Origin: a virus
Lineage: Duplodnaviria > Caudoviricetes
IMG/VR virus record: IMGVR_UViG_3300022670_000329
Location: 1-40,801 of that record
Length of the DNA: 40,801 nucleotides
Direction: 5' to 3' (one strand)
Positions 18,438-40,353 of this stretch are shown piece after piece (the stretch's first letter is position 1; each line of letters opens with the position of its first letter). A model generated the notes under the pieces. The model did not search any database and had not been told where the DNA came from. It was given only the letters and a program-made list of their open reading frames with translations. Made by a program: the position numbers and the translations under genes.

Positions 18438-19022
18438 TTATCCGTAAATGTGCATTACAAAGCACTGTGATCGATTCAAGTCATTGACCACATCTTTAAT
18501 TTGAATTCCAATTCTCGCTCCCGCTACGATATCTACAGGGAAAGAAACCACGGTGTTGCTGTGGCTAACAATTCCACCACCAGGGTTTTGAATGAGAAGC
18601 ATCTCAGCGACCTCGACAGTTGTCAAAGTTGGACCGCTTACGATGTCAAATTCATAGGTGCCGTCCTGCTCACCTGGGCCTGTCGTGCCAGCTATTGAAA
18701 GCGTAATCCACTTCACGTTAAAGCCAGCCGCAGCAAAGAACTCCACCGGAGTTCCATAAGTATCCGCAGGAGATCCAACTGTAACACAAATCTCAACCGT
18801 TTCATCTGCTTGAGACAACTCTGTAAATGATCCAGCCTGAAATACAATAGTATTAACAAGACTCGATCCTGGTCTGGGCTGTAATGAGCCTTCCTGCACA
18901 GACTTCACGTTAATGAAACGCGAATAGTGCTGTCCATCTACCTGATCTATAGAATGAATCAAGTCTAAACCTTTATTGTCAAACTTGATTACTTCATTAC
19001 TCCAAGGATTACGTAAAGCCAT
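18438..19022 (-). CDS. Nozzle-like N-terminal segment fused to a beta-sandwich repeat domain
   Basis: First ~60 aa FDNKGLDL...NVKSVQEGSLQPRPG; C-part FPVDIVAGARIGIQIK matches downstream repeats. Confidence 0.6.
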   Translation of the reverse strand: MALRNPWSNEVIKFDNKGLDLIHSIDQVDGQHYSRFINVKSVQEGSLQPRPGSSLVNTIVFQAGSFTELSQADETVEICVTVGSPADTYGTPVEFFAAAGFNVKWITLSIAGTTGPGEQDGTYEFDIVSGPTLTTVEVAEMLLIQNPGGGIVSHSNTVVSFPVDIVAGARIGIQIKDVVNDLNRSQCFVMHIYG

Positions 19023-19035
19023 AATGTGTTATAAT
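19020..19035 (+). promoter_or_regulatory. Extended -10 promoter CATAATGTGTTATAAT (antisense to late operon)
   Basis: TGnTATAAT; 16-mer shared with 3824 and 40493. Confidence 0.7.
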
Positions 19036-19041
19036 AGTGAT

Positions 19042-19075
19042 GTACCCGAATGGGGGAGGACTTCGGTCCTTTCCT
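19042..19075 (+). ncRNA. Putative tiny hairpin RNA A
   Basis: GTACCCGAAT leader then GGGGGAGGAC-TTCG-GTCCTTTCCT; C(UUCG)G loop and G.U pairs favour the + strand. Confidence 0.5.
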
Positions 19076-20357
19076 ACTCAGGTATCTTGTGTTCGTCCCG
19101 ATCAAAACCTAAAAATTGTGCAAAGAGCGGTTCGGGATTACGTTCTATTGCAGCTAGTTGAAAATTCTGTAATAGTTCTTGTGAAGCCTGGAACTCAGCG
19201 GTTCCCGATTTAAAAGTAGCTAAATGATGGGCGTAATCAACTAGGAGTTCAGCTTCTCCGAAACTAATATCCACATCTGCACCGTCATTGGCCGGAATTG
19301 GCGCGTCGATTAGCCCATCTATATCTAGTGTACTGCCTCCTGTATCATCTGAAGGATGCAGACCAATTTGGGTCATTCCAACAGGGAACCATTCTACAGG
19401 AATAGAATCATCTTTCTGCCAGCCATCTTCTCCAAAGTCTAAAGACATAAGAGATTCTAAATTCAGAGGGGTTCCATTAAGTTCTACTCGCATGTGCATC
19501 TTACGAAGTAGCAAGATTTTTGCGAGAACTACTCCCTCTCGAAAACGATTTTCGGCGTATTTTGCGCGCATTGGATCATGTGCTTGCCCTTCCTTGGACA
19601 ACAAATCGGCCAATGCTCCCCACTTAATGTAAGGGGTAAAGTCATTTGGAATACCGAGAATTGTGCCATCCGGTGTACTTGGTAGTTGTGCCGCCAGATC
19701 TGTGTATAAAATATCCAAGGTTCCCGCAGCATCAGGCGCGGGTAAAATCTCTATAGTTTGTGTTGGGAGACTTTCTTCTACGTATGCTTCAGGAGTACCA
19801 GGAGTAGTAGTCCATGAAGGTAAGAAGTGATCGTATTGAAATAGGTCGGCTTCTATTAAGCCATGCGAAAACCCATCCGAATCAGCAACCCAGGCTACTC
19901 GATGTAGCTTCATATTACCAGTATCCAGAAGGGCGTTAAGATCATACCGCGACACACCAATAGTAGTGGCGAATGTCTTTCGCGTCACGACAAGTTTGGT
20001 TTCCATCATGAACTGAGCCAAGCGTGAGTTAAGCACACGCACCCATTCCTCAATAGTCCAAATATCTGTACTTAGGGATGCACCCTGGTTTGGAGTCTCC
20101 AGAGTATGAAACTGCATTTCATTGAGTATGTCTTGATCGGATACAGTTTGGGAAGTTAGTCCCGTATTGTAAAAGATGGTGCTTGCAGTAGTCGCAACGG
20201 CATTGGTGTCTCGCCATCGTCCTACCATCAAATTCCACACGCGTAGAGCTTCGATAAGGTAGAGTTCCATTTCCGAAGTTGTCCAGAATGAATTTGCTCC
20301 CACCCTGTCGTGGGCCATACTCTTGAGTAGTCCTAACGTGAATTGTGTGTATCCCAT
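19074..20357 (-). CDS. Head-tail adaptor / tail tubular protein A-like, internally duplicated
   Basis: FWTTSEMELYLIEA and IWTIEEWVRVLNS; IEILPAPD...IPNDF.PYIKWGALA. Confidence 0.65.
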   Translation of the reverse strand: MGYTQFTLGLLKSMAHDRVGANSFWTTSEMELYLIEALRVWNLMVGRWRDTNAVATTASTIFYNTGLTSQTVSDQDILNEMQFHTLETPNQGASLSTDIWTIEEWVRVLNSRLAQFMMETKLVVTRKTFATTIGVSRYDLNALLDTGNMKLHRVAWVADSDGFSHGLIEADLFQYDHFLPSWTTTPGTPEAYVEESLPTQTIEILPAPDAAGTLDILYTDLAAQLPSTPDGTILGIPNDFTPYIKWGALADLLSKEGQAHDPMRAKYAENRFREGVVLAKILLLRKMHMRVELNGTPLNLESLMSLDFGEDGWQKDDSIPVEWFPVGMTQIGLHPSDDTGGSTLDIDGLIDAPIPANDGADVDISFGEAELLVDYAHHLATFKSGTAEFQASQELLQNFQLAAIERNPEPLFAQFLGFDRDEHKIPE

Positions 20358-27541: not shown

Positions 27542-28594
27542 TTATCCAGTGATTCGGTTCAACTGTCCCTGGAATCGGGGTTGTACGCAAGTGATGTTAC
27601 CGGCGAAGAACATCTGTCCAGCCAGCAAGTTGTCGTCACGTTCGCCCTTAAAGCCAGAGAAACCAAACGCAAACTCAGGATCAGCAGTAATCCATAAGCG
27701 CCAATGTTTGGTGTTCAACCACCATAACACTTCGCCTTCGCCAGAGTCAAGCAAGTTCTCACCGAACCCGTTTTCACCAGGGGCGTACTGCGAAACCATG
27801 ATTCGCGCTGCGTTGAACTCAAGTCCAGTAAAGCCAATCGTGGGATCGACAGAACTAAACCTCTGTTGGGGCTGAAACTTCTGCTTAATAAAAGCAATAC
27901 CCTTATTGGTGGTCACACCAAGATCGGGCTGTTCGGCACCAACAACAGTTTCCTGATAAGTTTCCTCTAGCGTTTTATAACTAATGGAACCGGAAACGTC
28001 AGTGACGTTACCATCAAGAGCGTTGTTCACGTCAGCACGTAGGATAGTACCGTATGAGTCAAAGGTCTGACCATCAGAGTCAGAAGCCAACTCATAACTA
28101 TCCGTTACGTTGTCGTTTATAATTTCAGCAAGGCCATTAAGTCTCAAAGACCTATCGGTTCCATCACCACCGGACAAATCGATACCGTAACCGTAAAGGT
28201 CAACAGCAAGATCTTCCGACAGCTTCAGGGCCGCATTGACCATGTGCAAGTCGATAATTCGGAAAGCCGCTTCCGGTCCGACATTGATAACCTGAATTTC
28301 CTCTTTCACGACAGAAACGTTGCTGTAATAGTGCTTCACGTCATGCGTGGTCCTATTAGCAATGTCTTTCTTCGTGATGGTAAACGTATTGGACGTATTG
28401 TTACGATCATACGGTCCACCATTCTCACGGTCATACATGAACATCTCATCGAAGGTTTTTCCGCCAGGGAATACCATCGGCTGATTTGCTTTCATGAACG
28501 CTAAGAGAGGATCATTCAAAAAGATACCATCTGCCACACCAGGAGCAATAAATTCCTGTGTAAGTGCATTGATTTCAGATAATGAAAGAGCCAT
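27542..28594 (-). CDS. Major capsid protein
   Basis: 350 aa after scaffold; NDPLLAFMK..FPGG, LAVDLYGYG, LNGLAEII, WWLNTKHW, GNITCVQPRFQGQL; followed by hairpin. Confidence 0.85.
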   Translation of the reverse strand: MALSLSEINALTQEFIAPGVADGIFLNDPLLAFMKANQPMVFPGGKTFDEMFMYDRENGGPYDRNNTSNTFTITKKDIANRTTHDVKHYYSNVSVVKEEIQVINVGPEAAFRIIDLHMVNAALKLSEDLAVDLYGYGIDLSGGDGTDRSLRLNGLAEIINDNVTDSYELASDSDGQTFDSYGTILRADVNNALDGNVTDVSGSISYKTLEETYQETVVGAEQPDLGVTTNKGIAFIKQKFQPQQRFSSVDPTIGFTGLEFNAARIMVSQYAPGENGFGENLLDSGEGEVLWWLNTKHWRLWITADPEFAFGFSGFKGERDDNLLAGQMFFAGNITCVQPRFQGQLNRITG

Positions 28595-29870: not shown

Positions 29871-30104
29871 TTACTCTCCTTTTTTGACCGGAATTATATC
29901 GTAACCACCGGATTGAGGTCCGTGGTTAGCAACCGTACCTGGACGGTCATAACCTGGAACTGCACCAAAGCCCTCGTAATGCGTCCAGTTTTCGGGCATT
30001 GGCCCGGATGGAGCATCGAAGTCCACAGTTCTAGGTACGTCTGGGCTGAAATCCCCAAATAGGGGATGCTCAAACTCAGGTTTCTTGTGCGCTCGTTGCG
30101 TCAT
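29871..30104 (-). CDS. Small disordered protein
   Basis: In-operon ORF; P/G/D rich. Confidence 0.6.
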   Translation of the reverse strand: MTQRAHKKPEFEHPLFGDFSPDVPRTVDFDAPSGPMPENWTHYEGFGAVPGYDRPGTVANHGPQSGGYDIIPVKKGE

Positions 30105-30105
30105 A

Positions 30106-30165
30106 TTACTTCTTTTTCCCGATAGCGTCAGTAAAGACGGTATCCATAGATCCTTTGTTAGACAT
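30106..30165 (-). CDS. 19-aa peptide MSNKGSMDTVFTDAIGKKK
   Basis: GAGG RBS; stop 1 nt before next ATG. Confidence 0.5.
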   Translation of the reverse strand: MSNKGSMDTVFTDAIGKKK

Positions 30166-30183
30166 TTCTGATAGCCTCGTTCG

Positions 30184-30223
30184 AAAATTAAAGTAGGGAG
30201 TGAGGGATATCCTGACCCCCTAC
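30184..30223 (-). terminator. Terminator-like hairpin in leader of head genes
   Basis: GTAGGGGGT...ACTCCCTAC followed by TTTAATTTT. Confidence 0.6.
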
Positions 30224-30260
30224 AATATTAGACAGAGAAAGCGTTAAGCCTTCAAGTGTT

Positions 30261-30289
30261 ACTATATCACACTATTATATCCTAATCAA
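30261..30289 (-). promoter_or_regulatory. Sigma70-type promoter TTGATT-N17-TATAGT with TG extension
   Basis: Directly after portal stop; exact spacing. Confidence 0.75.
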
Positions 30290-30290
30290 G

Positions 30291-32201
30291 TTAGGACTCA
30301 GATACTATCGGACGACCATCACCTTTAGTTTCAATTGAAGGTGTAGTCTGTGCTGTGGGCTTACGGCCAGGGGTTCCAGCCGATTCCTGTTGGATAAGAG
30401 CGATCTTCTGATCCAACTCACTACCCAATCGAGCCGCAATCTGTGGAATATTAGGTACTTCCAGCAATTCCAAGAAGGTTTCGTGATCGATCTCGCCCAT
30501 TCGCCGCAACATGATAGCTTCTGCTTTCTTTGTAATCAACTGCAACTCCAGCATGGAATTGGGTGTCACATAGAAGGTGAAGTTCGATGCGTGTTTGATA
30601 GCCCGTTGTGTTCTTGTCAATCCAGCAAATTCGCTGAAATTCTGCAAATTACCATCTGTATCCAGAATATCTCCTGAACCGTCAGGTATCAAGGAGTTAG
30701 GATCAAAGTCAAAATCTTCCAAGGTCAATCCACCAGGACCGAGAATTGACATTCTCCGCTTGGCAGTGTAATGCTGCATAAAGCCAAACTTAACCAAATG
30801 GGCTAATTCCCTAATGCTAAATTCCAGCAAACGCCCCCGCATCCGAAGTTGCGGAGACATACCAGCTTGGATAGCCTCAATAGATTCTGCCGAAGGAGTT
30901 TGTCTCAATCGCGTCAGTGCCGACAAGTCGCGCGATCCGCTCAAGAGATCCATTTTATCAACAATGAACTCAAGCATGGAGAAGACATAATCTTTTAATT
31001 CTGCCCCACCCTCAAATTGGATTCCTTGACCACCGAGAAAGCGTAGTCTCATATTCTGGCCTGAACGCCGTGAATCGAATTTCGCTAATTCTTTCTGTGA
31101 GATAACTCTGGAATCCGCAATCTTGTTGGGCCGCAGATCCTTCTTAATATTATCATCTACCCCTTGCACTACATTATTCACAAACTCATTAAGTGGAATA
31201 AGATCCTGCGTCAAACTCTTGGAGAAGAATGAATTGGGATAAACAAAACTCATATCATTGAATAACTTAACAACGGGGAACATATCAAACCACCAAACGT
31301 TCGGCCCATCGTAAAATACTTTCTTAGTAGAAGATATGATCGTGCGCCCGCGTGGGTATAATGGTTCATTGGGTTCCACGTCATAACTATAAAATGTTTC
31401 TTTTCCTTGATTGTCCAAACCCATAGACACTGTGTTCTGGGACTCATTCATGGCATCATCCTTCACATGCACAGTGAATACCTCAACGCCTGGAATTGTC
31501 ATATTGGGTTTACCAGGGTTGCGGAATCTACTAAGCACAGGAGAAATCATACGATCAAACACATGGGAGGTTATGTGCCGACCAGTACCAAATGCTACGT
31601 CCTGGTCAGGTTTGATGAAATCCGCTAAATGCGGGTATTTCGCTTTTAAGAAACTGACTGTTTCTCTTGACCGAATGATAACTCCCATACTATCTTGGAT
31701 AGACATAGAAGTTGTGGGTCTGATGGGGATTACATCTCTTGCATCTCTTGGAATGATATCCAGATCTCCAAGTCCACCTTGAAGTTCGGGGTTCCAAACA
31801 AGATGGAGATATGCACAGCCCGCTGGCATTGCCAACTGTACGGCTGCTCCAATTTTCAGATCAATAAAATTATTCAACCACCACGATTGCGATAGTTGAT
31901 TCAAAATCATAGCCTGACCTTTAAACAAGTCATTGGCTGATTTATAAGAGAAGAACGGTTTAAGATCCGTCAATGCGGCAACATTGTCGCCTACTGCCTT
32001 GCCAAGCAAGTTGACGGTTAAATGGGAAAGATCGCTATGCTGAAGTTTAGAGTGATGCTCACCTTGAATATACGCAATGCCTCTATCAATATCTTTATAC
32101 CCAAATTGTGCGCGTAAGAAGGCATCACCTTCATTAACCACGGTATTTACCCAAGTAAGAACATCTTTCTCACGTTGGGTAATAGGTACGATATTCGCCA
32201 T
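30291..32201 (-). CDS. Portal protein
   Basis: 636 aa between terminase and scaffold; YIQGEH, VNLLGKAV, YPRGRTI, FPVVKL, SAESIEAIQ; podoviral portal layout. Confidence 0.85.
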   Translation of the reverse strand: MANIVPITQREKDVLTWVNTVVNEGDAFLRAQFGYKDIDRGIAYIQGEHHSKLQHSDLSHLTVNLLGKAVGDNVAALTDLKPFFSYKSANDLFKGQAMILNQLSQSWWLNNFIDLKIGAAVQLAMPAGCAYLHLVWNPELQGGLGDLDIIPRDARDVIPIRPTTSMSIQDSMGVIIRSRETVSFLKAKYPHLADFIKPDQDVAFGTGRHITSHVFDRMISPVLSRFRNPGKPNMTIPGVEVFTVHVKDDAMNESQNTVSMGLDNQGKETFYSYDVEPNEPLYPRGRTIISSTKKVFYDGPNVWWFDMFPVVKLFNDMSFVYPNSFFSKSLTQDLIPLNEFVNNVVQGVDDNIKKDLRPNKIADSRVISQKELAKFDSRRSGQNMRLRFLGGQGIQFEGGAELKDYVFSMLEFIVDKMDLLSGSRDLSALTRLRQTPSAESIEAIQAGMSPQLRMRGRLLEFSIRELAHLVKFGFMQHYTAKRRMSILGPGGLTLEDFDFDPNSLIPDGSGDILDTDGNLQNFSEFAGLTRTQRAIKHASNFTFYVTPNSMLELQLITKKAEAIMLRRMGEIDHETFLELLEVPNIPQIAARLGSELDQKIALIQQESAGTPGRKPTAQTTPSIETKGDGRPIVSES

Positions 32202-32204
32202 AGA

Positions 32205-32588
32205 TTATCTCCCTTGCAACTTTTTCGCTAACAATTCACGTAAATCGGTCTGATGGGTCTCTTGCACCGGATTTTTCGCGTAGTCTTCTTTACCATGTTT
32301 GGTGTCATAAGAATATGCTTCACAGCACAACTGCTGATCTTCATGTTTCTTTTCAAGTTGTCGTAGTTGATGCAGACTTGTAATTAAAACAGGTTTGCCT
32401 TCTAACCGAGTCAAATGCTCCGCTACAAACGGTACGAAACTCCTACGTTGTCTCCGTCGAGGATCGTATGCCATTTCCGTCTTACAGATCGGACATAACT
32501 GCACATGATCCATAATCTCATCACACGTAATATATTCATCAATCATCCTTTCTTCACAGTTAGGACAATCAAAATCGTATAACGGCAT
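32205..32588 (-). CDS. FmdB-like zinc-ribbon protein
   Basis: MPLYDFDCPNC...CPICK. Confidence 0.75.
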   Translation of the reverse strand: MPLYDFDCPNCEERMIDEYITCDEIMDHVQLCPICKTEMAYDPRRRQRRSFVPFVAEHLTRLEGKPVLITSLHQLRQLEKKHEDQQLCCEAYSYDTKHGKEDYAKNPVQETHQTDLRELLAKKLQGR

Positions 32589-33007
32589 TAAACTAAACCC
32601 AACACAACGTTAAGTGCGTAGGACATTTGCTCACGAACATAACGCTGAATCTGTTTAATTACCACTTCTTTCGGATAATCCTCGGCATCTTGAGCCGATG
32701 TGGGTTCTCCTTCTTCTGCGTTGAAGTAAGCCTGTTCCTTTAGCATTTGAATCTGATCTCCGTCTAACTGCAATTCTACTCCTTGCAATTTAATTGCACC
32801 AACGGTCATTATCCGCTGGAACAATTCATGCGCGGTTTTGAATTGACCAAAGTGCCTACGAAGATCCGCAAGCTGTTGTCCCGTAAACTGAAGTGCCCAA
32901 TCCGTGTCATTAGGCATATCAGCCGTGTCTACAACCCGCTTCCAGATTGCTTGTTGAGAGCCATACTGCTCATAAACTTCATCAGGTATCTTAAATTCAA
33001 AAATCAT
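32588..33007 (-). CDS. Hypothetical protein
   Basis: GGAGG RBS and upstream promoter. Confidence 0.65.
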   Translation of the reverse strand: MIFEFKIPDEVYEQYGSQQAIWKRVVDTADMPNDTDWALQFTGQQLADLRRHFGQFKTAHELFQRIMTVGAIKLQGVELQLDGDQIQMLKEQAYFNAEEGEPTSAQDAEDYPKEVVIKQIQRYVREQMSYALNVVLGLV

Positions 33008-33030
33008 TAAACAAAAACCTCCCTTAATAG

Positions 33031-33073
33031 ACTATACCACAAATCCACGTTGAAATCCAGTTTGTGATATAAT
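33031..33073. promoter_or_regulatory. Back-to-back extended -10 promoters (TGTGGTATAGT on -, TGTGATATAAT on +)
   Basis: Imperfect inverted repeat ACTATACCACAAA...TTTGTGATATAAT; minus promoter has TGGATT at 17 nt. Confidence 0.7.
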
Positions 33074-33079
33074 AGTGTT

Positions 33080-33120
33080 GACGCAACGGGAGAGGGACTA
33101 CTACACGGTAGTCCTTTTCT
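33080..33120 (+). ncRNA. Putative tiny hairpin RNA B
   Basis: GACGCAAC leader then GGAGAGGGACTAC-TACACG-GTAGTCCTTTTCT with G.U pairs. Confidence 0.5.
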
Positions 33121-33122
33121 AT

Positions 33123-33965
33123 TTACCAACCTTCATCCAATTCCTGCATCATCCTGCTATAGCTAACAGCCGTGTTCCGGTATGTGGGCTTTACATATGT
33201 GGGGTCGTCTTCCTTTCTTATACCCTCTTTAACCAAATTTGACAGGTATCTCTCCCTATCCAGAGCCAAATCAGGATCATACGCATTAGCCGCCCAGAGT
33301 GCGTGGAACCCCGCAAAGAGCCTATCATCGAGCTTCTTACCCTGAAATCTGCCCGCAGCAGCCTTAATGTCCTGGGCCAGAGCATCATAGTCCTTGATCT
33401 TGGCGATCTCAAAGCCAGCCATTTCACTGATGAACCAGGGCGACTGGATGATCCAATTGCCTGTCTTCAGCCTAGTTTCACCCAACATGACCAATTTCGT
33501 CCGTGTCTTAGCAGTAACCTTGGTACCAAAAGCTGGTATCTCGTTACGTCTAATGCTAGTGGTGTTGATATCCTGAAACAGATTCTCGTACTGAAATTCC
33601 TCAGATAGTGTGTGAATGGTATGCTCACCGTAGTTGTTGGACTCCACGTTGACCACCGCTGGCATATCCAGGTAGTGATCGAAGTACATGAATCCAATCT
33701 TATGAATCACGGCCGCAAACTCGTTCGGCTTGAGGTAATTACACGCGAACTCAGCCACTTGCACCTCGTATTCGCTCTTGCTGCCCTTCTTCAGCACATG
33801 GACTACTGAGTTACTCAAACCTAGTCCACCGCCAATATCAGCACCTATGTAGTATTCTGCGCCCTTCTGCGGTCCCTCAAACATGAGCAGACAACCATTT
33901 GGATCAGCCAACTCAGTAGACATACCGAGGAATTTGATTTTAGGATCTGCGAAGTATGGTTCCAT
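33123..33965 (-). CDS. Terminase large subunit, nuclease (RNase H-like) domain as separate ORF
   Basis: YYIGADIGGG, VNVESNNYG, DDRLFA motifs. Confidence 0.8.
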   Translation of the reverse strand: MEPYFADPKIKFLGMSTELADPNGCLLMFEGPQKGAEYYIGADIGGGLGLSNSVVHVLKKGSKSEYEVQVAEFACNYLKPNEFAAVIHKIGFMYFDHYLDMPAVVNVESNNYGEHTIHTLSEEFQYENLFQDINTTSIRRNEIPAFGTKVTAKTRTKLVMLGETRLKTGNWIIQSPWFISEMAGFEIAKIKDYDALAQDIKAAAGRFQGKKLDDRLFAGFHALWAANAYDPDLALDRERYLSNLVKEGIRKEDDPTYVKPTYRNTAVSYSRMMQELDEGW

Positions 33966-35164
33966 TAGTCTATCGCGGAAGGCATATGATACACCTGAAA
34001 GGGTTTCAGCCGCTTCTGCATTTCATTGATAAGTTCATTGCCGAACATACCGATAGTCCTATGCTGGAACGCCTCAAAGTGATCTGTGGGGTATTCAGAG
34101 TAGAAAGTAGCCAGATTACCTGACTTCTTGAAGTTTATGTAATTTGCTTCCCACCAATACATCTGCTCCTTGGTGACGACGAACGCCTTGCCAAAACAAT
34201 ATGTAGGACTCGTTTTCAGCACATGAGCCGCCCAATCAAGGGTAGCCTTACGTGGAGTCCAATTAGTCGGAGGATTCATGACATAGAGTGAGTTAAGATA
34301 GACTGGAATGAACAACGCCCTGAGCTTAGGATCTCTACCTTCCCATGAGCGTGTAAACATATCGTGCCAATGATCGTCACGTACACGCGCGGTAGATTCG
34401 TGGATGCCAATATTGTTTGGAAACAAGTGAAAAGTTGGCATAAAATCAGCGTCGATTTGTTCATAGTTTTCCCAATCTGGGAGTTCTGTAAAATGAAAGA
34501 CATTGGTAGTGTTTCCTTGAGCGATACCGCCGCCCATCTTGCGTCCGTGGCCTACGACCAGGGTACTGTTAAGATCATCGAAATGAATAGCCTCACCCTC
34601 AGTCGTCTTGACGTTATCCTTAATAGAAGGATACATCCACCAAGGCAAGCCATCCATAATATCATTGAAGCGTCTGCGAAGAACCTGAGAGCCTGTAGGT
34701 GCGTCCGAGGCCATAACCCCGCGCTGGTTCTCATGGAACACAAGCCGCTGTACCATTATGTTCTGTGCAAGCTGTGTAGCTCCTGCCTGTCGGCACTTAC
34801 ACCACACCCATCCATTGCTGCGCCCTTCTTCCCAGGCCAGCTTCTCGCCATTGGAGATATGTAGAAGGCCAGTCTCTTGCGCGTCCCAGAGTTCAATCGT
34901 AACCAGTCTGCCATCAGGAGTCATAACCTTAGAATAGCGGTCCATCCAATAACGGAAGTCCCAAGTACACAGGGCTATCTCATTGATGATGAATTGGTTT
35001 TCGTGATCTTTAAGTTGTCTGACAGGCTGCTTCTTGTCCTCGTTCCAGTCAGGCATGCTTTGTTGCATGTCTAGTGATTCACCCACAGTAAACCGTTTAA
35101 GTTTAAAAGGGATACCTTTCTGGACTTCATGCAGCCGCACAGCGACTATTTCTTCGTGGTACAT
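33965..35164 (-). CDS. Terminase large subunit, ATPase domain
   Basis: Walker A-like CKCRQAGAT, Walker B-like FHFTE, coupling motif HESTA, SEYP...EAF. Confidence 0.85.
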   Translation of the reverse strand: MYHEEIVAVRLHEVQKGIPFKLKRFTVGESLDMQQSMPDWNEDKKQPVRQLKDHENQFIINEIALCTWDFRYWMDRYSKVMTPDGRLVTIELWDAQETGLLHISNGEKLAWEEGRSNGWVWCKCRQAGATQLAQNIMVQRLVFHENQRGVMASDAPTGSQVLRRRFNDIMDGLPWWMYPSIKDNVKTTEGEAIHFDDLNSTLVVGHGRKMGGGIAQGNTTNVFHFTELPDWENYEQIDADFMPTFHLFPNNIGIHESTARVRDDHWHDMFTRSWEGRDPKLRALFIPVYLNSLYVMNPPTNWTPRKATLDWAAHVLKTSPTYCFGKAFVVTKEQMYWWEANYINFKKSGNLATFYSEYPTDHFEAFQHRTIGMFGNELINEMQKRLKPFQVYHMPSAID

Positions 35165-35331
35165 TTTAGATAAGCTAATATAGGTAATTCTTCAAACATC
35201 CGGTCTACGTAAGGCATAGAGTGACGTAAAGTAATTTCTATCATTTGAGCCATAACAACCCACATAGGCACACTACGCCACGGAAATAAGTCTAACTGGA
35301 ATGGCTCAAACTTAAACGTCAGTTGGTTCAT
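35146..35331 (-). CDS. 61-aa protein with QLTF and QLDLF motifs
   Basis: GAGG RBS before ATG 35331; fills gap between terminase genes. Confidence 0.55.
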   Translation of the reverse strand: MNQLTFKFEPFQLDLFPWRSVPMWVVMAQMIEITLRHSMPYVDRMFEELPILAYLKCTTKK

Positions 35332-35917
35332 CTTCAGCCTCAACTACTATCTCAAAGGGGTTATCGTGCATCAGATCGCCAGAACCTCTGGCAACCTTGC
35401 CAGCCATGCCTTTCTCCATCATACTACCGAAGTTCTGATTGAGGTTGATGTTAATGCCGCCATCCTTGGGGAATAGGCCAGCCATCTGAAAGAGCATCTT
35501 TCGCTCCTGGTGTCCATCAGGCTCAGTGGCCGCGTCCAGACTCACCCGCATGAGATCAGGCAGATCTCTAAACATGATATCGTAAGCCTTGATAACGTTC
35601 TGGGTGCGAAGTCCTTGAGAGAAATACTTTTGGAGTTCGTGTGGATTAGGCGAGACAGACTTAGCTATCTCGTACAAGGACTTGTCCTCGTTTTCCATCA
35701 ATCCTAGGGCCGTGACGAAAGCTTTGGCCTTGGGGTGCTGACTAGCAGCCACGGCATCTATGAGAGCCGATCTGCCGCCCGCTGTTTCCTCAAGACTATC
35801 TAGGGCTCTCTGGAGACTCAACTCCGCTCCATCCATACTCTGCAAAGCGGTGCTGGAGTTCTTCGATCCCTTCTTTTTCGTCGTCGTGCGCTTCGTAGCT
35901 GACTTCTTCTTGGGCAT
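35312..35917 (-). CDS. Terminase small subunit candidate
   Basis: Upstream of TerL; helical, RKMLFQMAGL..GGININLNQNF tail typical of TerS; GAGGTG RBS. Confidence 0.55.
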   Translation of the reverse strand: MPKKKSATKRTTTKKKGSKNSSTALQSMDGAELSLQRALDSLEETAGGRSALIDAVAASQHPKAKAFVTALGLMENEDKSLYEIAKSVSPNPHELQKYFSQGLRTQNVIKAYDIMFRDLPDLMRVSLDAATEPDGHQERKMLFQMAGLFPKDGGININLNQNFGSMMEKGMAGKVARGSGDLMHDNPFEIVVEAEDEPTDV

Positions 35918-36053
35918 TTTCAGGCACCTCGTCTACCCATCCAAGCTGTTCTGCAATAGCATGGAGCAGACGATTCTGTTCCTCCATTATTTCGGACTGT
36001 TTTGCGACATTTTTGGCTAATACTCTCAGTACCGCCACTTGGGTTAAATTCAT
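35796..36053 (-). CDS. Hypothetical acidic protein
   Basis: TAATG-coupled to XRE gene; overlaps next gene by 122 nt. Confidence 0.55.
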   Translation of the reverse strand: MNLTQVAVLRVLAKNVAKQSEIMEEQNRLLHAIAEQLGWVDEVPENAQEEVSYEAHDDEKEGIEELQHRFAEYGWSGVESPESPR

Positions 36054-36352
36054 TAAAACTTACCTTCTCGCTGCAATTCTGCCAGCTTCGCTAGGTATTC
36101 ATCTTTGTAAAGGGTTGCCAGCCGAGTTAGCTGGATTTTAAAGGTACGCATAGGACGCGTTTTGCCAGTTTCCCAATTCGCAATCGTTTTACAAATTCCG
36201 TACTTTTTGCCGTGAGGCCGCCGAGACACTTTTTGGGTATACAACCCTACGTGTTTTCCTAGATCGTAACGTGACCACCCTATTGCGTGGCGCAGCGCCC
36301 GTATCTGGAGAGGCTCACTGTTGTAATATTCCGTTTTCAGCGGTAATTCCAC
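36053..36352 (-). CDS. XRE-family HTH regulator with insertion
   Basis: IRALRHAIGWSRYDLGKHVG...KTIANWETGKTRP; ~15 extra residues in the turn. Confidence 0.8.
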   Translation of the reverse strand: MELPLKTEYYNSEPLQIRALRHAIGWSRYDLGKHVGLYTQKVSRRPHGKKYGICKTIANWETGKTRPMRTFKIQLTRLATLYKDEYLAKLAELQREGKF

Positions 36353-36373
36353 CTTTTCTACACCTTCCCTCCA

Positions 36374-36389
36374 TTTATGATATCATAAA
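36374..36389. promoter_or_regulatory. Perfect 16-bp palindrome TTTATGATATCATAAA; bidirectional extended -10 / operator
   Basis: TGaTATCAT on both strands between divergent genes. Confidence 0.75.
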
Positions 36390-36392
36390 AGC

Positions 36393-36581
36393 ATGATAAG
36401 AGTGGAAATTACACCTGGATCAATCGCTATTTTGCAGGACGATTATGTGTTGTACGAATCTCTGACAGAATTATCCCTTTCCTCCCCACGATCTGTTATA
36501 ATGGATATAGACGACATTATTGAATTGGTGAGAGAATTGACAGACGACGAGGTAATTTTGACAGAGGATGCGTATGAATAA
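36393..36581 (+). CDS. Small acidic protein, probably leaderless
   Basis: ATG 6 nt after TATCAT, no SD; D/E-rich. Confidence 0.65.
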   Translation: MIRVEITPGSIAILQDDYVLYESLTELSLSSPRSVIMDIDDIIELVRELTDDEVILTEDAYE

Positions 36582-37800
36582 CAAGAAATCTGTGCTGAAT
36601 AGTATCAAGAAGGCTGGCGCAGCAGGGATAAACCTGCGTAAACTGTGCAAACACAGGACTGCTGGCTCTACCAGGAAATTCTTAAAAGAACTCATTGGTG
36701 AAGGAAAGGTGAAGGAACTGTCTATTCTGAACAGGAATAAGACAACCACCCGCATATTCATTCTGGCTAAAGACGACGAGCGAGAGGCTCTAGGTCATGC
36801 TTTCATAAACTTCCTTGTAACAGGGAAAACCCGCGACGAGATAGTACACACCTTTGGCGATCATGCCGATGCGCTAATCGCTGGCGAATACCAGGGTTAC
36901 AACAAGTTTGAGCAACTGAATGACTTTGGAGAGAAGGTCTGGATACTCCTGCCTGAAGTCCGAAACGAGTTGATTGTGCAACCGAGAGACTGGACGTACA
37001 GTATTGGCAAAAACGACAAAGGCGAGAACCAACCTTACATCATGGCTCAACTGCCAGATAGTGCTTTCCACGATGCAAACTTTGGTGAGTGCATCAGGAT
37101 CGCTCCTATCGCTGACGTACACTACGGCCACAAGGCTTGTAGGATCGAGAAGTGGTTGTCCTACCTACGCTGGATCAAGGAAACTCCTGGCTTGTATGCG
37201 ATCATCCTAGGCGATCTCATGGAGAACGCACTAGACGATGGGCGTGGTATGAGCTACGATCAGGACAAAGATCCACAAACACAGCTAGATGAAATGACTG
37301 CAATGATCGCTCCGATAGCACATAAGGTGCTGTTAATGACAAGGGGGAACCATGAAGCTAGAACGTTCAAGAGAAGCGGAATCGACCCGATGCGTATTCT
37401 CGCGGAACGCCTGGACATTCCGTATTTTAGTGGGCCTAGTATCGCAGCCATTCTCGCGGGTGGGCATAAATGGTCAGTCTATACCTTTCACGGCAAAGGC
37501 AACGCGCAAACCAAAGGCGGCAGAATGAACGCTGCTGGTGTAGCCCGCAAGTTCACAGGGTTCATCAACTTTTATCTTTCAGGCCATACACATGATCCGA
37601 TGGCAAACTCCGAAACCTGTATCGTAGAAGATCCTATTAACTGTAGATTGATCTATCCGCAACAATGGACAGTAGTCACATCGTCATTCCTAGCATGGGA
37701 AAACACTTACGCTTATGATGCTGGATATGCACCGTCAGGGAGAGGGGGAGTAATACTGGAACTTTACAAGAACGGTGACTACAACGCAAGCATGAGGTAG
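36568..37800 (+). CDS. Calcineurin-like metallophosphoesterase with N-terminal winged-helix-like region
   Basis: IADVHYG, ILGDLMEN, RGNHE, FHG, SGHTH; N-terminal LKELIGEGKVKE. Confidence 0.85.
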   Translation: MRMNNKKSVLNSIKKAGAAGINLRKLCKHRTAGSTRKFLKELIGEGKVKELSILNRNKTTTRIFILAKDDEREALGHAFINFLVTGKTRDEIVHTFGDHADALIAGEYQGYNKFEQLNDFGEKVWILLPEVRNELIVQPRDWTYSIGKNDKGENQPYIMAQLPDSAFHDANFGECIRIAPIADVHYGHKACRIEKWLSYLRWIKETPGLYAIILGDLMENALDDGRGMSYDQDKDPQTQLDEMTAMIAPIAHKVLLMTRGNHEARTFKRSGIDPMRILAERLDIPYFSGPSIAAILAGGHKWSVYTFHGKGNAQTKGGRMNAAGVARKFTGFINFYLSGHTHDPMANSETCIVEDPINCRLIYPQQWTVVTSSFLAWENTYAYDAGYAPSGRGGVILELYKNGDYNASMR

Positions 37801-37806
37801 AAACTA

Positions 37807-38355
37807 GTGTTCCGAGCAACCACAGACCGTACGGTACTCCCGTATACGATAGAAGGATGGGATCTTCGTAATGAAGACGACAGAGAGAAGTGTGTGAAAA
37901 AATGGCAAAAGAACCTGAGACTAGAGGATTTCGACGTAGTTATCAGTTTGAAGCGTTTTGTCGATCTGAACTTAGGAGACTCCACTGCCAGCATCAGAGT
38001 GAACGAATGGCACAAATGCGCCACGATCTACCTTTTGGACCCAATCGACTATATACTGAGCAACTATGCGGATATGGTTTGGGGATATGATATGGAAGAT
38101 GGCATTGTCCACGAACTACTCCATATCCCAATGTTCCCCTACACGCCCGAAGACAAAGAGACACTGGAATACACAGCTTTGGAGGTTTGTATATCAACTA
38201 TGGCAAATGCACTACTTACCCTAGACAGGGCACGATGCGTACACAAAAAGCGTAACGGCGCTGATATTCAATTAAAAGAGGAAAACGATAGATTGAAGGC
38301 CGCAAGCAAATCCATCATGAAACTCCTAAAGAACGAGACTAACCCTGTATCATAG
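37807..38355 (+). CDS. HEXXH zinc-metallopeptidase-like protein
   Basis: IVHELLHIP, downstream E; C-terminal coiled coil; GAGG RBS, GTG start. Confidence 0.7.
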   Translation: MFRATTDRTVLPYTIEGWDLRNEDDREKCVKKWQKNLRLEDFDVVISLKRFVDLNLGDSTASIRVNEWHKCATIYLLDPIDYILSNYADMVWGYDMEDGIVHELLHIPMFPYTPEDKETLEYTALEVCISTMANALLTLDRARCVHKKRNGADIQLKEENDRLKAASKSIMKLLKNETNPVS

Positions 38356-38402
38356 GCTAGTCCATGGAGTGAGGTATGAGGATTTGATACGGTATCTACC
38401 AG
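38328..38402 (-). ncRNA. Putative ~75-nt sRNA with CU-rich core
   Basis: Downstream of consensus-like promoter; TCCTCATACCTCACTCC tract; hairpin 38337-38362 then TCGTTCTTT. Confidence 0.4.
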
Positions 38403-38407
38403 TTCTT

Positions 38408-38436
38408 ACTATAACACACCCAAGCCCTTAAATCAA
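38408..38436 (-). promoter_or_regulatory. Sigma70-type promoter TTGATT-N17-TATAGT with TG extension
   Basis: Exact spacing; no convincing sense ORF downstream. Confidence 0.7.
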
Positions 38437-38442
38437 GTCTAT

Positions 38443-39414
38443 TTAGTTTTCGTCGGTAGTTTCTTTGGTTTCAAGCGGTTCAGGTTCAGTCTTCTCAATC
38501 TTGCCATCACGTCTTCTCCTGAGAGTAGGTCTATCAGGATTATCAGAGACAACCGAGTTCTCGGCTTCTCTCCAATCTGCAAGAATCTGCTGCATATCCG
38601 TAAACGCGCCAGAAGTAAGTTGTCGTTCATCCTTTACAGGAAAGAAAGCAATTTCCTCAACTACCTTACGCGCTCGATCATCGAACGGTGGGTGAGTAGA
38701 AAAGAATCCTATGTGATTACCTTTTTCTTCCTCAAGCCTCTTAAAGAAGTCAACAAAGGCCATTGGGTCATATCCTGCGTTCCACAGGTATTGCGCCCCA
38801 AGTTGATCGGCCTCAATCTCTGAGCCACGACTGATTCCTAGCACCAACATGGATAAACCAAAGCCGATGCCCTGGTAAAGCAGATATTCCTTCCAACTGC
38901 CGCCAAGCACAAACATTAAGGGAATAGTCGAATATTGGATAAGTTGGCCTTTGGTCGCCATTTCAGTTGAATGACGCGCAAAGACGTGAGCCATCTCATG
39001 TGCCAGAACACCCGCCAGTTCAGCCTCAGACTCGACAGCTTCTATAAGTCCTGTGTGGACATAGAGATAGCCGCCTGGAAGGGCGAAAGCGTTGATGGTG
39101 TCGTCGCGGATAATCTTTACCTTAATGGGCTGTTTGGCATCACTAGCTTTGACAATTTTATTGGTAAGAGCGGTGATATATTCATTAAGCTCAGGGTCGT
39201 TTTCGATTGGAGCATTATTCTCAATAAAAGCAGCATATTCCGCTCCCATACGAGCCTCTGACTCAAGGGAAGTGAAGTTTGGGAAAATCCTGAATATGCG
39301 CCCGTTGATTTGTCTGTTGCCAATGTTTTCAATGTCTTTGTGATTCCTCGCCATCAAGGGCGTAGTGACCAGTAACAAAGATAATAGGATGCTGATGATT
39401 TTGCGGTGCTTCAT
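38443..39414 (-). CDS. Secreted M48 family zinc metalloprotease (BepA/YfgC-like)
   Basis: Signal peptide; INAFALPGG, AELAGVLAHEMAHV, EIEADQLG, AGYDP, FSTHPP; C-terminal RPTLRRR. Confidence 0.92.
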   Translation of the reverse strand: MKHRKIISILLSLLLVTTPLMARNHKDIENIGNRQINGRIFRIFPNFTSLESEARMGAEYAAFIENNAPIENDPELNEYITALTNKIVKASDAKQPIKVKIIRDDTINAFALPGGYLYVHTGLIEAVESEAELAGVLAHEMAHVFARHSTEMATKGQLIQYSTIPLMFVLGGSWKEYLLYQGIGFGLSMLVLGISRGSEIEADQLGAQYLWNAGYDPMAFVDFFKRLEEEKGNHIGFFSTHPPFDDRARKVVEEIAFFPVKDERQLTSGAFTDMQQILADWREAENSVVSDNPDRPTLRRRRDGKIEKTEPEPLETKETTDEN

Positions 39415-39415
39415 A

Positions 39416-39433
39416 TAAATTCCCCCGTTTGCC
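39416..39433 (-). repeat. 18-bp dispersed motif copy 6 (GGCAAACGGGGGAATTTA)
   Basis: Between TATAAT and ATG 39414. Confidence 0.85.
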
Positions 39434-39471
39434 TATTATACCACGAATGACTAGCAACTATGGTATAATAG
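39433..39471. promoter_or_regulatory. Back-to-back extended -10 promoters in perfect 11-bp inverted repeat
   Basis: CTATTATACCA-N17-TGGTATAATAG. Confidence 0.8.
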
Positions 39472-39475
39472 TGAT

Positions 39476-39522
39476 ACCGCTGAACGAGAAGGGCGAGTGG
39501 ATAGATTTCCCTCGCTTTTTTC
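39476..39522 (+). ncRNA. Putative tiny hairpin RNA C
   Basis: ACCGCTGAAC leader then GAGAAGGGCGAG...CTCGCTTTTTTC; + strand terminator polarity. Confidence 0.55.
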
Positions 39523-39541
39523 ATTTATGGAGGTATTTCTA

Positions 39542-39877
39542 TCAAGGTCGTGCCATAGGTCCAGACGACTTAGGTAAATTGGCCTCGGCAAAGTCTTTGC
39601 TCTCCTGAAACAACGCTTCCTTGATATAAGTCAGAAATGGCTCATTTGCCTCACATTCCATAAAATCGCCAGGAAAGATCCTTCGGTCTATTCTTATGCG
39701 AAAACAGCCCCAACACAATACTTCGTCCGACTTAGCTACTTCTTCCCAACAACGGTCTGTCATCATAAACTGGTTGATTTCTAGTTTGCAGTCATCACAG
39801 AGGTTATTGACTGAAAGCACAAGATCACCATTCATGGCCGTTTTCACCTGTCCTTCTATTTTTACGTCTTGTTTCAT
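39542..39877 (-). CDS. Cys-rich conserved phage protein
   Basis: CDDC...FMMTDRCW...LCWGCF..RIDRRI...DF pattern. Confidence 0.7.
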   Translation of the reverse strand: MKQDVKIEGQVKTAMNGDLVLSVNNLCDDCKLEINQFMMTDRCWEEVAKSDEVLCWGCFRIRIDRRIFPGDFMECEANEPFLTYIKEALFQESKDFAEANLPKSSGPMARP

Positions 39878-40353
39878 TATGATCGCTCCAAAAATATTGA
39901 TTGCCCTTTAGGGGTAATACGACTTAGTTTATCTACGGTAGCTTCAAAAACCTTCATTTGGGCAAGTTCGTCCTCGCCTAGCTCAATTAGTCCTTCTTCG
40001 TGCAAAAGTCGATTCCAGTGCGAAACGGGCCAAGTCCTTGTCTCACAACACTTTGAGGTCTGAATCACGAAACTCATGATGAGCTCAAGTGTAATCCATG
40101 CTTTCATGCGTCTTTGCGCCGGTTCGCCTATATTATCGTCAATCATCCCGCCAATCCACCTTTCGGCGTTTTTGTAGTCGTCACCGCGTAAAGTCTCATT
40201 TACGTGCAAACAGGGTAAAGTGTTGGCAAAGTGCTTATGAGGCACACAAATCCAGAAACCACGCGCACAGTCCATAGCCACTGGTTCCTTGAATCCTGTC
40301 CATTCCCATCGAAAGTAGTCTGCGTAGTCGAATCCTGCTAAATCCTTACTCAT
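39877..40353 (-). CDS. Hypothetical protein
   Basis: Coupled to both neighbours. Confidence 0.65.
   Translation of the reverse strand: MSKDLAGFDYADYFRWEWTGFKEPVAMDCARGFWICVPHKHFANTLPCLHVNETLRGDDYKNAERWIGGMIDDNIGEPAQRRMKAWITLELIMSFVIQTSKCCETRTWPVSHWNRLLHEEGLIELGEDELAQMKVFEATVDKLSRITPKGQSIFLERS

Follow-up and report, generated by a model that had tools for sequence, protein, structure and literature searches.

Why should the gap between two late genes of a phage carry, on the opposite strand, a consensus promoter that leads almost at once into a terminator-like hairpin? The gap lies in the minus-strand virion arm, between a 427-aa structural gene with an SU10 adaptor domain (19074..20357, minus strand; Pfam PF24175, E 1.5e-9), which is upstream on the coding strand, and a 194-aa gene (18438..19022, minus strand) whose start codon stands just upstream of the opposite-strand promoter. 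The same arrangement occurs at two further places in the window, which is the whole 40,801-nt contig, and an earlier note on this DNA had proposed that the three units, here called A, B and C, produce tiny RNAs. Our analysis indicates that they form a conserved family, with three copies and no catalogue entry, of very short units predicted to be transcribed in antisense, for which a function can only be proposed.

Three plus-strand cassettes with a shared architecture

All three cassettes were found on the plus strand where the earlier note had placed them, at 19027-19076 (A), 33065-33122 (B) and 39461-39524 (C). Each comprises a perfect TGnTATAAT element, an 8-10-nt leader and a hairpin with a U-rich tail, and an AGTG discriminator and an AAY before the stem are common to all. 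The dedicated promoter is 14-16 nt from a one-way, U-tailed hairpin, and every unit sits at the 3' end of a gene. A composite pattern drawn post hoc from A, B and C matched those three places only, with no match in 100 shuffles.

In unit A, the extended -10 promoter TGTTATAAT (19027..19035, plus strand; hexamer 19030-19035), which has no -35 match, is followed by the discriminator (AGTG start) and a predicted 10-nt leader (19036..19051, plus strand; predicted +1 at G19042), and then by a terminator-like hairpin (19052..19076, plus strand) with a cUUCGg loop (19062-19065), the 3' end of which overlaps the stop codon (19074-19076) of gene 19074-20357. Unit B (TGATATAAT, 33065..33122, plus strand) has a predicted +1 at G33080, an 8-9-nt leader and a hairpin at 33089-33120, with a tail that extends to the stop codon of gene 33123-33965; back to back with it stands a sense promoter, TGGTATAGT (33031..33039, minus strand), the predicted starts being 56 nt apart. 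Unit C (TGGTATAAT, 39461..39524, plus strand) has a predicted +1 at A39476, a 10-nt leader, a hairpin at 39486-39522 and a U6 tail, and is likewise back to back with a sense promoter, that of an M48 peptidase gene (TGGTATAAT, 39435..39443, minus strand), with predicted starts 48 nt apart.

The units use the phage's own sigma70-type promoter class, in agreement with the promoter assignment made earlier. The element TGNTATAATAGTG has three exact copies in the window, all on the plus strand (19027, 33065 and 39461), and 10 matches at <=2 mismatches compared to 3.55 in shuffles (0 of 100 shuffles reached 10). More broadly, TGnTATA(A/G/C)T is the ordinary promoter of this phage and lies upstream of sense genes, at sites including +230, +36494, -40501, -39443, -33039, -20676 and -3832, among others. 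A purine is found 7 nt after the hexamer at 8 of 8 perfect TGnTATAAT sites, and an ATG stands exactly at this distance in 3 of 29 extended -10 sites (0.47 expected). Calibrating on this spacing of purines and leaderless ATGs, we infer that the three units start at the positions given above.

Folding the 55 nt from each predicted +1 gave -22.9, -20.0 and -24.5 kcal/mol (A, B and C), a stability equalled in 0.11%, 0.58% and 0% of 8,150 genome windows, respectively. Among 13 promoter sites, only A, B and C are followed by such a very stable fold, the remaining 10 ranging from -2.8 to -13.2 kcal/mol. The predicted RNAs would be 35, 43 and 49 nt long, with 3' ends that we placed in the U-rich tail, and the unit A RNA could reach ~50 nt if a weak first U-tract were read through. 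Their leaders are predicted to be single-stranded (0.93-1.0, with 0.93 for A in its 35-nt RNA). In our judgement, short plus-strand RNAs are very probably made.

Strand polarity of the hairpins

The hairpins had been claimed to work only on the plus strand. For the inner stems this holds: G.U pairs number 3, 4 and 3 on the plus strand vs 0 on the minus strand (A, B and C), and the 8 nt after the core stem contain 4, 5 and 6 U on the plus strand vs 2, 3 and 3 on the minus strand. With no U-tract on the coding strand, the units are, as previously argued, poorly explained as intrinsic terminators of the minus-strand genes. A hairpin located after the capsid gene has the same design of purine arm and G.U pairs in its own sense direction.

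The plus-only claim has to be limited to the inner stem, however, because the minus strand of unit A folds nearly as well (z of -4.07 on the minus vs -4.16 on the plus strand) and forms an additional outer stem. There, the late mRNA is predicted to contain a long interrupted hairpin (19043..19084, minus strand; 16 bp, -20.9 kcal/mol), in which the final codons of gene 19074-20357 form the pairing partner of the leader complement, and only 1 of 500 leader shuffles was as stable. Read-through on the plus strand would bury the leader likewise (7 of 500 shuffles). The same test indicated no outer stem at B, with 346 of 500 shuffles as stable, and a marginal one at C (48 of 500). Since the outer stem uses the leader complement, unit A may be under selection on both strands, and its leader may be partly held by the minus-strand stem. 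A further argument for unit A had been the overlap of its promoter with a start codon, that of gene 18438-19022, lacking a Shine-Dalgarno (SD) sequence. This start is indeed SD-less, but its value as evidence is weak because such starts are common in this phage (23 of 51 had no 4-nt SD match in a crude test) and because relatives shift the ATG by 2 nt with respect to the promoter.

Paralogy and conservation among relatives

The stems of A and B can be aligned in register so that 30 of 30 cells are paired, one change being two-sided and four one-sided, and covariation across the three available rows was no better than in shuffles (164 of 500 as good). When a covariance model was built from A, B and the unit B of a related contig (L001), the held-out unit C ranked next in the window, with 21.5 bits and a rough E of 0.001, and scored above all promoter-only matches. 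The proposal that the hairpin sequences differ while the architecture is kept is borne out, and the units are paralogous and conserved.

L001 is 84% identical to the phage at the nucleotide level over 9.4 kb, and its unit B includes a 47-nt identical run across the promoter, leader and 5' arm, along with one A-U to G.U change and a longer U-tail. With four-fold sites being 66% identical (923 sites), the probability of an identical 8-nt B leader is 0.037, or 0.003 when the discriminator is included. This identity is still weak evidence, since the spacer between the two B promoters is also well conserved in L001, as are other intergenic stretches. In a second contig (X2), unit C has 1-nt deletions at 39498 and 39509, in a bulged U and an apical C run, as seen among the 40 differences listed of about 1,790. 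A small-peptide role for the units was considered and rejected: open plus-strand frames start at the GTG inside AGTG, but this codon is upstream of +1, the frame of unit B stops within 13 codons in L001, and the two 1-nt deletions of the X2 contig fall in unit C.

For unit A, contigs of relatives, drawn from four runs in three studies, were compared with 18960-19140; the unit is covered from 19022 onward in 6 of 8 pieces. One contig has the compensatory pair A19060T and T19067A (A-U to U-A), four have T19063C, which changes the UUCG loop to UCCG and keeps it within UNCG, and C19077T is present in 6 of 6 spanning pieces. No change is listed in 19022-19059, but 2-6 unlisted differences per spanning piece could lie there, so that the invariance of promoter and leader is bounded (<=2 in the best piece) rather than proven. 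In a seventh piece, which is more diverged, the loop and the 3' arm persist within a loose end. Upstream of unit A the relatives diverge, and the distance from the minus-strand ATG to the promoter is two bases longer.

Relatives at ~60% capsid identity lack the units at sites A and B where these were checked. The two genes flanking site A are coupled without a gap in L008 (63% capsid identity), and at site B the sense promoter stands alone in both L008 and L009. The covariance model had no match in 195,652 nt of more distant relatives. Given these absences, the cassettes are likely lineage-specific, having been inserted or duplicated in this clade. Within IMG/VR, queries with the adaptor, M48 and 1420-aa genes retrieved no further relatives, queries with capsid and terminase retrieved only L001 and one contig at 24% identity, and a blastn search of unit A against 50,697 phage records gave no match.

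Candidate roles of the predicted RNAs

We favor, with a probability of roughly 0.38, a reading by analogy in which A, B and C would be minimal small RNAs acting in trans, each a seed on a terminator, like prophage anti-sRNAs but shorter. A host sigma70-type polymerase would transcribe each unit into its 35-, 43- or 49-nt RNA, and the free 8-10-nt 5' leader would pair with target RNAs in trans; the likeliest targets would be RNAs of the host or phage genes that lie outside the contig, in the missing part of the genome. The antisense orientation would likely be forced and not functional, because at site A the late operon would be interrupted by a terminator in sense orientation; a G.U-rich stem whose coding-strand version is weaker and lacks a U-tract would, by contrast, let late mRNA read through. 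Stems that are weak on the coding strand suit a passenger gene of an operon better than a two-way terminator. Also in favor are the three paralogs with one scaffold and different leaders, of which at least that of B is conserved. Against it, the purine arm pairs with the U-tail, the conservation of the A leader is explicable by the minus-strand outer stem, and a cis role fits B and C because they overlap sense promoters. Also against it, an A-rich 5' flank disfavors Hfq binding in E. coli (PMC7367173). In its favor, a published Hfq tree has an Acidobacteria group (PMC7074383).

A search of 51 phage start regions yielded no antisense targets of the leaders (154 of 300 shuffles as good for B and 75 of 300 for C), the only strong match of unit A being its own locus. 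Leaders as mimics of phage starts were also set aside. Those of B and C match 9 nt of genes 29871-30104 and 36053-36352 (A has no such match), but 79 of 1,944 and 76 of 1,941 random 12-mers did as well, and L001 kept the B leader yet lost its start-region match. Pairing among A, B, C and two further sites, D and E (see below), reached only -0.5 to -7.6 kcal/mol and was rejected.

The position of the units can also be read as a transcription brake acting in cis, with the antisense promoter competing with the sense promoters (B and C) or colliding with polymerase (A) and the terminator only keeping long antisense RNA out of the upstream gene, a mechanism that we consider possible if on the unlikely side. 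It would account for three units at gene 3' ends, for RNAs that are mostly terminator, and for antisense starts at B and C whose 56- and 48-nt distances from the sense starts are within two polymerase footprints. The late arm, moreover, is driven by ordinary promoters of the sigma70 type, which have to be damped. Strong transcription in one direction is described as repressing divergent RNA (PMC12825309), and head-on collisions as terminating at hairpins (bioRxiv 2022.10.23.513370). Unit A, however, has no competing sense promoter and must be read through for ~16 kb of downstream virion and lysis genes, collision requires a nascent-RNA hairpin but the inner stems, with their G.U pairs, are weakened on the coding strand, and in L008 and L009 the sense promoter persists although unit B is absent. 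Direct clashes are also reported to spare separate divergent promoters, with preferred spacings of 10-23 bp for shared elements (PMC12825309). Improbable in our view is a cis antisense role of the lambda OOP type, in which each short RNA would pair along its whole length with the 3' end of the mRNA from its upstream gene, or an RNase III site in the minus-strand hairpin at A that would split the late mRNA. Complementarity is perfect, with duplexes of -40 to -56 kcal/mol, the hairpins touch or adjoin stop codons, and OOP is described as promoting RNase III decay of cII mRNA (PMC12197685); at A, the outer stem is significant, and C19077T turns one of its G.U pairs into A-U (read by hand). Yet both partners are stable hairpins, the leader-complementary mRNA sites are predicted to be buried (unpaired 0.11, 0.12 and 0.46), and the outer stem is absent at B and marginal at C.

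Consensus promoters in three copies, the shared AAY before the stem and an architecture kept while the sequence differs would also be expected of protein decoys, i.e. hairpin RNAs titrating Hfq, a terminator-binding protein or a defense protein (Cas6, Cas7). VpdS of phage VP882 is described as competing for Hfq (PMC12197685), and solitary CRISPR repeats as often lying just downstream of a promoter (PMC10651486). We nonetheless find this improbable as well, as the positive evidence stops at copy number and promoter strength and the U-tail is sequestered by the purine arm, and the anti-defense or RNA anti-CRISPR role suggested earlier is not supported: Rfam 15 had 0 matches above the gathering threshold in the window and none on A, B or C at E<=5, and the three hairpins differ in loop and stem. 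Rfam, of which we take CRISPR-repeat families to be a part, holds far fewer repeats than the SRUFinder set, making this a partial test of repeat likeness. SRUFinder uses 17,823 CRISPR repeats (PMC10651486). Finally, because TATAATA reads TATTAT on the other strand, the units could be functionless by-products of a bidirectional -10 that serves the minus strand, possibly as a near-leaderless start for 18438-19022, with the terminator mopping up antisense RNA. At A, the hexamer on the bottom strand would place a start 18 nt away from that of the plus strand, 18 bp being the commonest bidirectional spacing among starts 10, 18 or 23 bp apart (PMC12825309), and the phage has a palindromic two-way promoter (36378/36385). 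This is the least probable of the readings weighed here, for the minus-strand use as for the lack of function, given that the perfect TG-extended element is on the plus strand and the minus strand has neither TG nor -35, that B and C already have minus-strand promoters of their own, that AGTG and AAY would be needless, and that the ATG shifts by 2 nt in relatives.

If the preferred reading as trans-acting small RNAs were extended beyond this phage, it would describe a general phage class in which a 5'-triphosphate 8-10-nt seed on a terminator is dropped antisense into late-operon junctions. We regard such a class as doubtful, and as equally doubtful its corollaries that the G.U-biased stem would be nearly invisible to the coding strand and that the seed of each copy would address a different host RNA.

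Relation to known systems

Phage small RNAs made from a promoter-terminator unit are a known kind (PMC12197685). The prophage anti-sRNAs AgvB (EcOnc01), AsxR (EcOnc02) and EcOnc03 of enterohemorrhagic E. coli (EHEC) O157:H7 are, like the predicted RNAs of A, B and C, multi-copy, very short and terminator-ended; they too run convergently with late transcription and combine a 5' end that varies with a 3' part in common (PMC4104026). They are given as 51-60 nt long, with 14-18-nt variable 5' ends and a 42-nt conserved 3' region (PMC4104026), whereas the lengths predicted for A, B and C are 35-49 nt, including leaders of 8-10 nt, no more than a 10-bp stem core can be aligned between A and B, there is no sequence or Rfam match, and the host is probably from the Acidobacteriota. 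In sequence, A, B and C carry the predicted signals of an own promoter and an intrinsic terminator, but length and conserved 3' region do not agree, and hence A, B and C are not members of the EHEC group.

Lambda OOP and P22 sar are also short antisense RNAs with their own promoter at a phage gene boundary (PMC12197685), and A, B and C likewise have a promoter and a terminator of their own antisense to a neighboring mRNA. They overlap stop codons and 3' UTRs only, however, lie in the virion arm or after an early operon, and their complementary toeholds are predicted to be mostly paired. Collision-driven bidirectional terminators of E. coli similarly have a hairpin between converging polymerases, but those described involve two long convergent genes and an element that is not an intrinsic terminator (bioRxiv 2022.10.23.513370), in contrast to the dedicated promoter and one-way hairpin of A, B and C. 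Racrs are small phage non-coding units with a hairpin just downstream of a promoter and resemble host repeats in sequence (PMC10651486); A, B and C showed no repeat-like sequence in the Rfam search, their hairpins differ between copies, and no acr neighbors were recognized. Our literature search, with bioRxiv supplements and most subscription journals outside its scope, returned no paper on this promoter-terminator layout.

If transcribed and active, RNAs of 35-49 nt would fall at the bottom of the size range catalogued for phage small RNAs; in one review table, the smallest size stated is ~37 nt (PMC12197685 Table S1). One transcriptome study points out that RNAs under ~80 nt can escape its pipeline (PMC10914365). 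If the host assignment is right, they would provide a level of control by RNA in a phage of the Acidobacteriota, the first phage isolates of which were reported in 2025 (PMC11924767). Whether an effect comes from RNA acting in trans or from polymerase interference in cis is a question that concerns antisense promoters of late phage operons in general.

Recurrence of the layout in other phages

Pattern scans of IMG/VR identified 26 loci with a strict pattern and 119 loci, from 29 of 64 parts, with a looser one. These 145 promoter-hairpin loci reduced to 105 unique units and 82 clusters, of which 23 had a representative at <= -18 kcal/mol compared to 4.1 +/- 1.6 expected (maximum 8 in 60 rounds), under a null that keeps the purine run and tail motif fixed, shuffles the rest, and ignores how common intergenic terminators are. 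One of the 23 stable clusters is the contig of L001, and no other locus is protein-related. Since the promoter-then-hairpin layout recurs in about 22 unrelated phage groups, the architecture is not unique to this phage, and the other instances are not homologues. Both flanks were antisense for 16 of 40 hairpin-bearing units and 7 of 38 units without a hairpin, based on crude ORF calls. At least one cluster (L092, L142, L153 and L160) resembles an opposite-strand terminator, and the antisense promoter-hairpin of L020 was rejected as a free unit since it precedes a 224-aa minus-strand ORF. Rfam searches of 36 recurrent loci matched no unit, only neighboring tRNA, tmRNA, ROOL and drum genes.

These scans also brought up an unrelated promoter-hairpin family (L057, L061, L066, L073, L103, L104, L107, L140, L143 and L185), several members of which lie beside tRNA, tmRNA or ROOL genes. 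It has a long GA-rich stem and a pyrimidine loop with UUUCCUUU, which resembles the anti-Shine-Dalgarno tail of 16S rRNA. Across 10 sequences, the non-folding L056 among them, two-sided changes are seen in 4 of 13 consensus pairs, and the unit had no Rfam match in the 5 loci tested.

Phage, host and neighboring elements

The phage is a podovirus-like, tailed phage, with genes for a portal (30291-32201) and a major head protein (27542-28594), a terminase large-subunit match (33965-35164) followed by a coupled 280-aa gene, two genes with SU10 adaptor domains, holin and endolysin on the minus strand, and nucleotide-metabolism genes on the plus strand. Its terminase region (33123-35164, minus strand) consists of two coupled ORFs (399 and 280 aa), which are also separate in L001, L008, L009 and L013, while Tunturi 1 has one 723-aa gene. 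Because capsid relatives sit on contigs reaching 57-65 kb, an estimated 17-24 kb of the phage genome would be absent from the contig.

The best-matching sequencing run was a marine sediment metagenome, possibly the source, and parts of 30000-39900 are present in 20 runs from 12 studies. None of these 20 is listed as RNA, and one run with a share of 0.05 is RNA by guess only, which says nothing for or against expression. Among 120 listed homologues of the M48 peptidase, 10 carry an organism name and all 10 are from Acidobacteriota. By capsid protein, the closest isolates are the Tunturiibacter phages Tunturi 1 and 2 (26.5% identity), which are podoviruses of Acidobacteriota (PMC11924767). As both lines point the same way, the host is probably an acidobacterium, which is a lead and not a result. 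Omnitrophota were considered as hosts and found unsupported: 7 of 301 genomes matched, through one 2-kb capsid contig and six short stretches, five of which fall in the M48 gene. This gene (38443-39414, minus strand), which has its own promoter, encodes a host-like, BepA-type peptidase that shares ~50% identity with proteins of Acidobacteriota.

Several other regulatory elements were observed. After the portal gene, site D (30170-30282, minus strand; conserved in L001) has a sense promoter, two hairpins and a U-rich tail, and looks like a late promoter with an attenuator that the capsid genes must read through. In the distant relatives L005-L010 and L018, the stretch between the portal gene and a 121-aa gene has a TTGACA promoter whose -10 is bracketed by a conserved, operator-like inverted repeat, followed by a short ORF that shows little conservation and ends at the start codon of the next gene. 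A possible fourth unit of different design, E (38325..38416, minus strand), combines a TGTTATAGT promoter with a predicted ~75-nt RNA and a CCUC-rich stretch; its hairpin overlaps the stop of the plus-strand gene 37807-38355, antisense to the end of the plus-strand operon, its fold z is only -1.37, and it does not match the A/B model. Against the 51 phage start regions, 78 of 100 and 38 of 100 shuffles were as good as D and E, respectively.

The palindromic two-way extended -10 promoter (36374-36393) faces a leaderless 62-aa ORF at 36393 on the plus strand and an HTH gene (36053-36352) on the minus strand. Two further minus-strand genes are leaderless, with the ATG exactly at +1 (40486 and 3817), and their promoters have CATAATGTG upstream in common with unit A. 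The non-coding end of the contig (40505-40801) is dense in overlapping ATGCA/TGCAT inverted repeats and is possibly an origin, packaging or terminal region.
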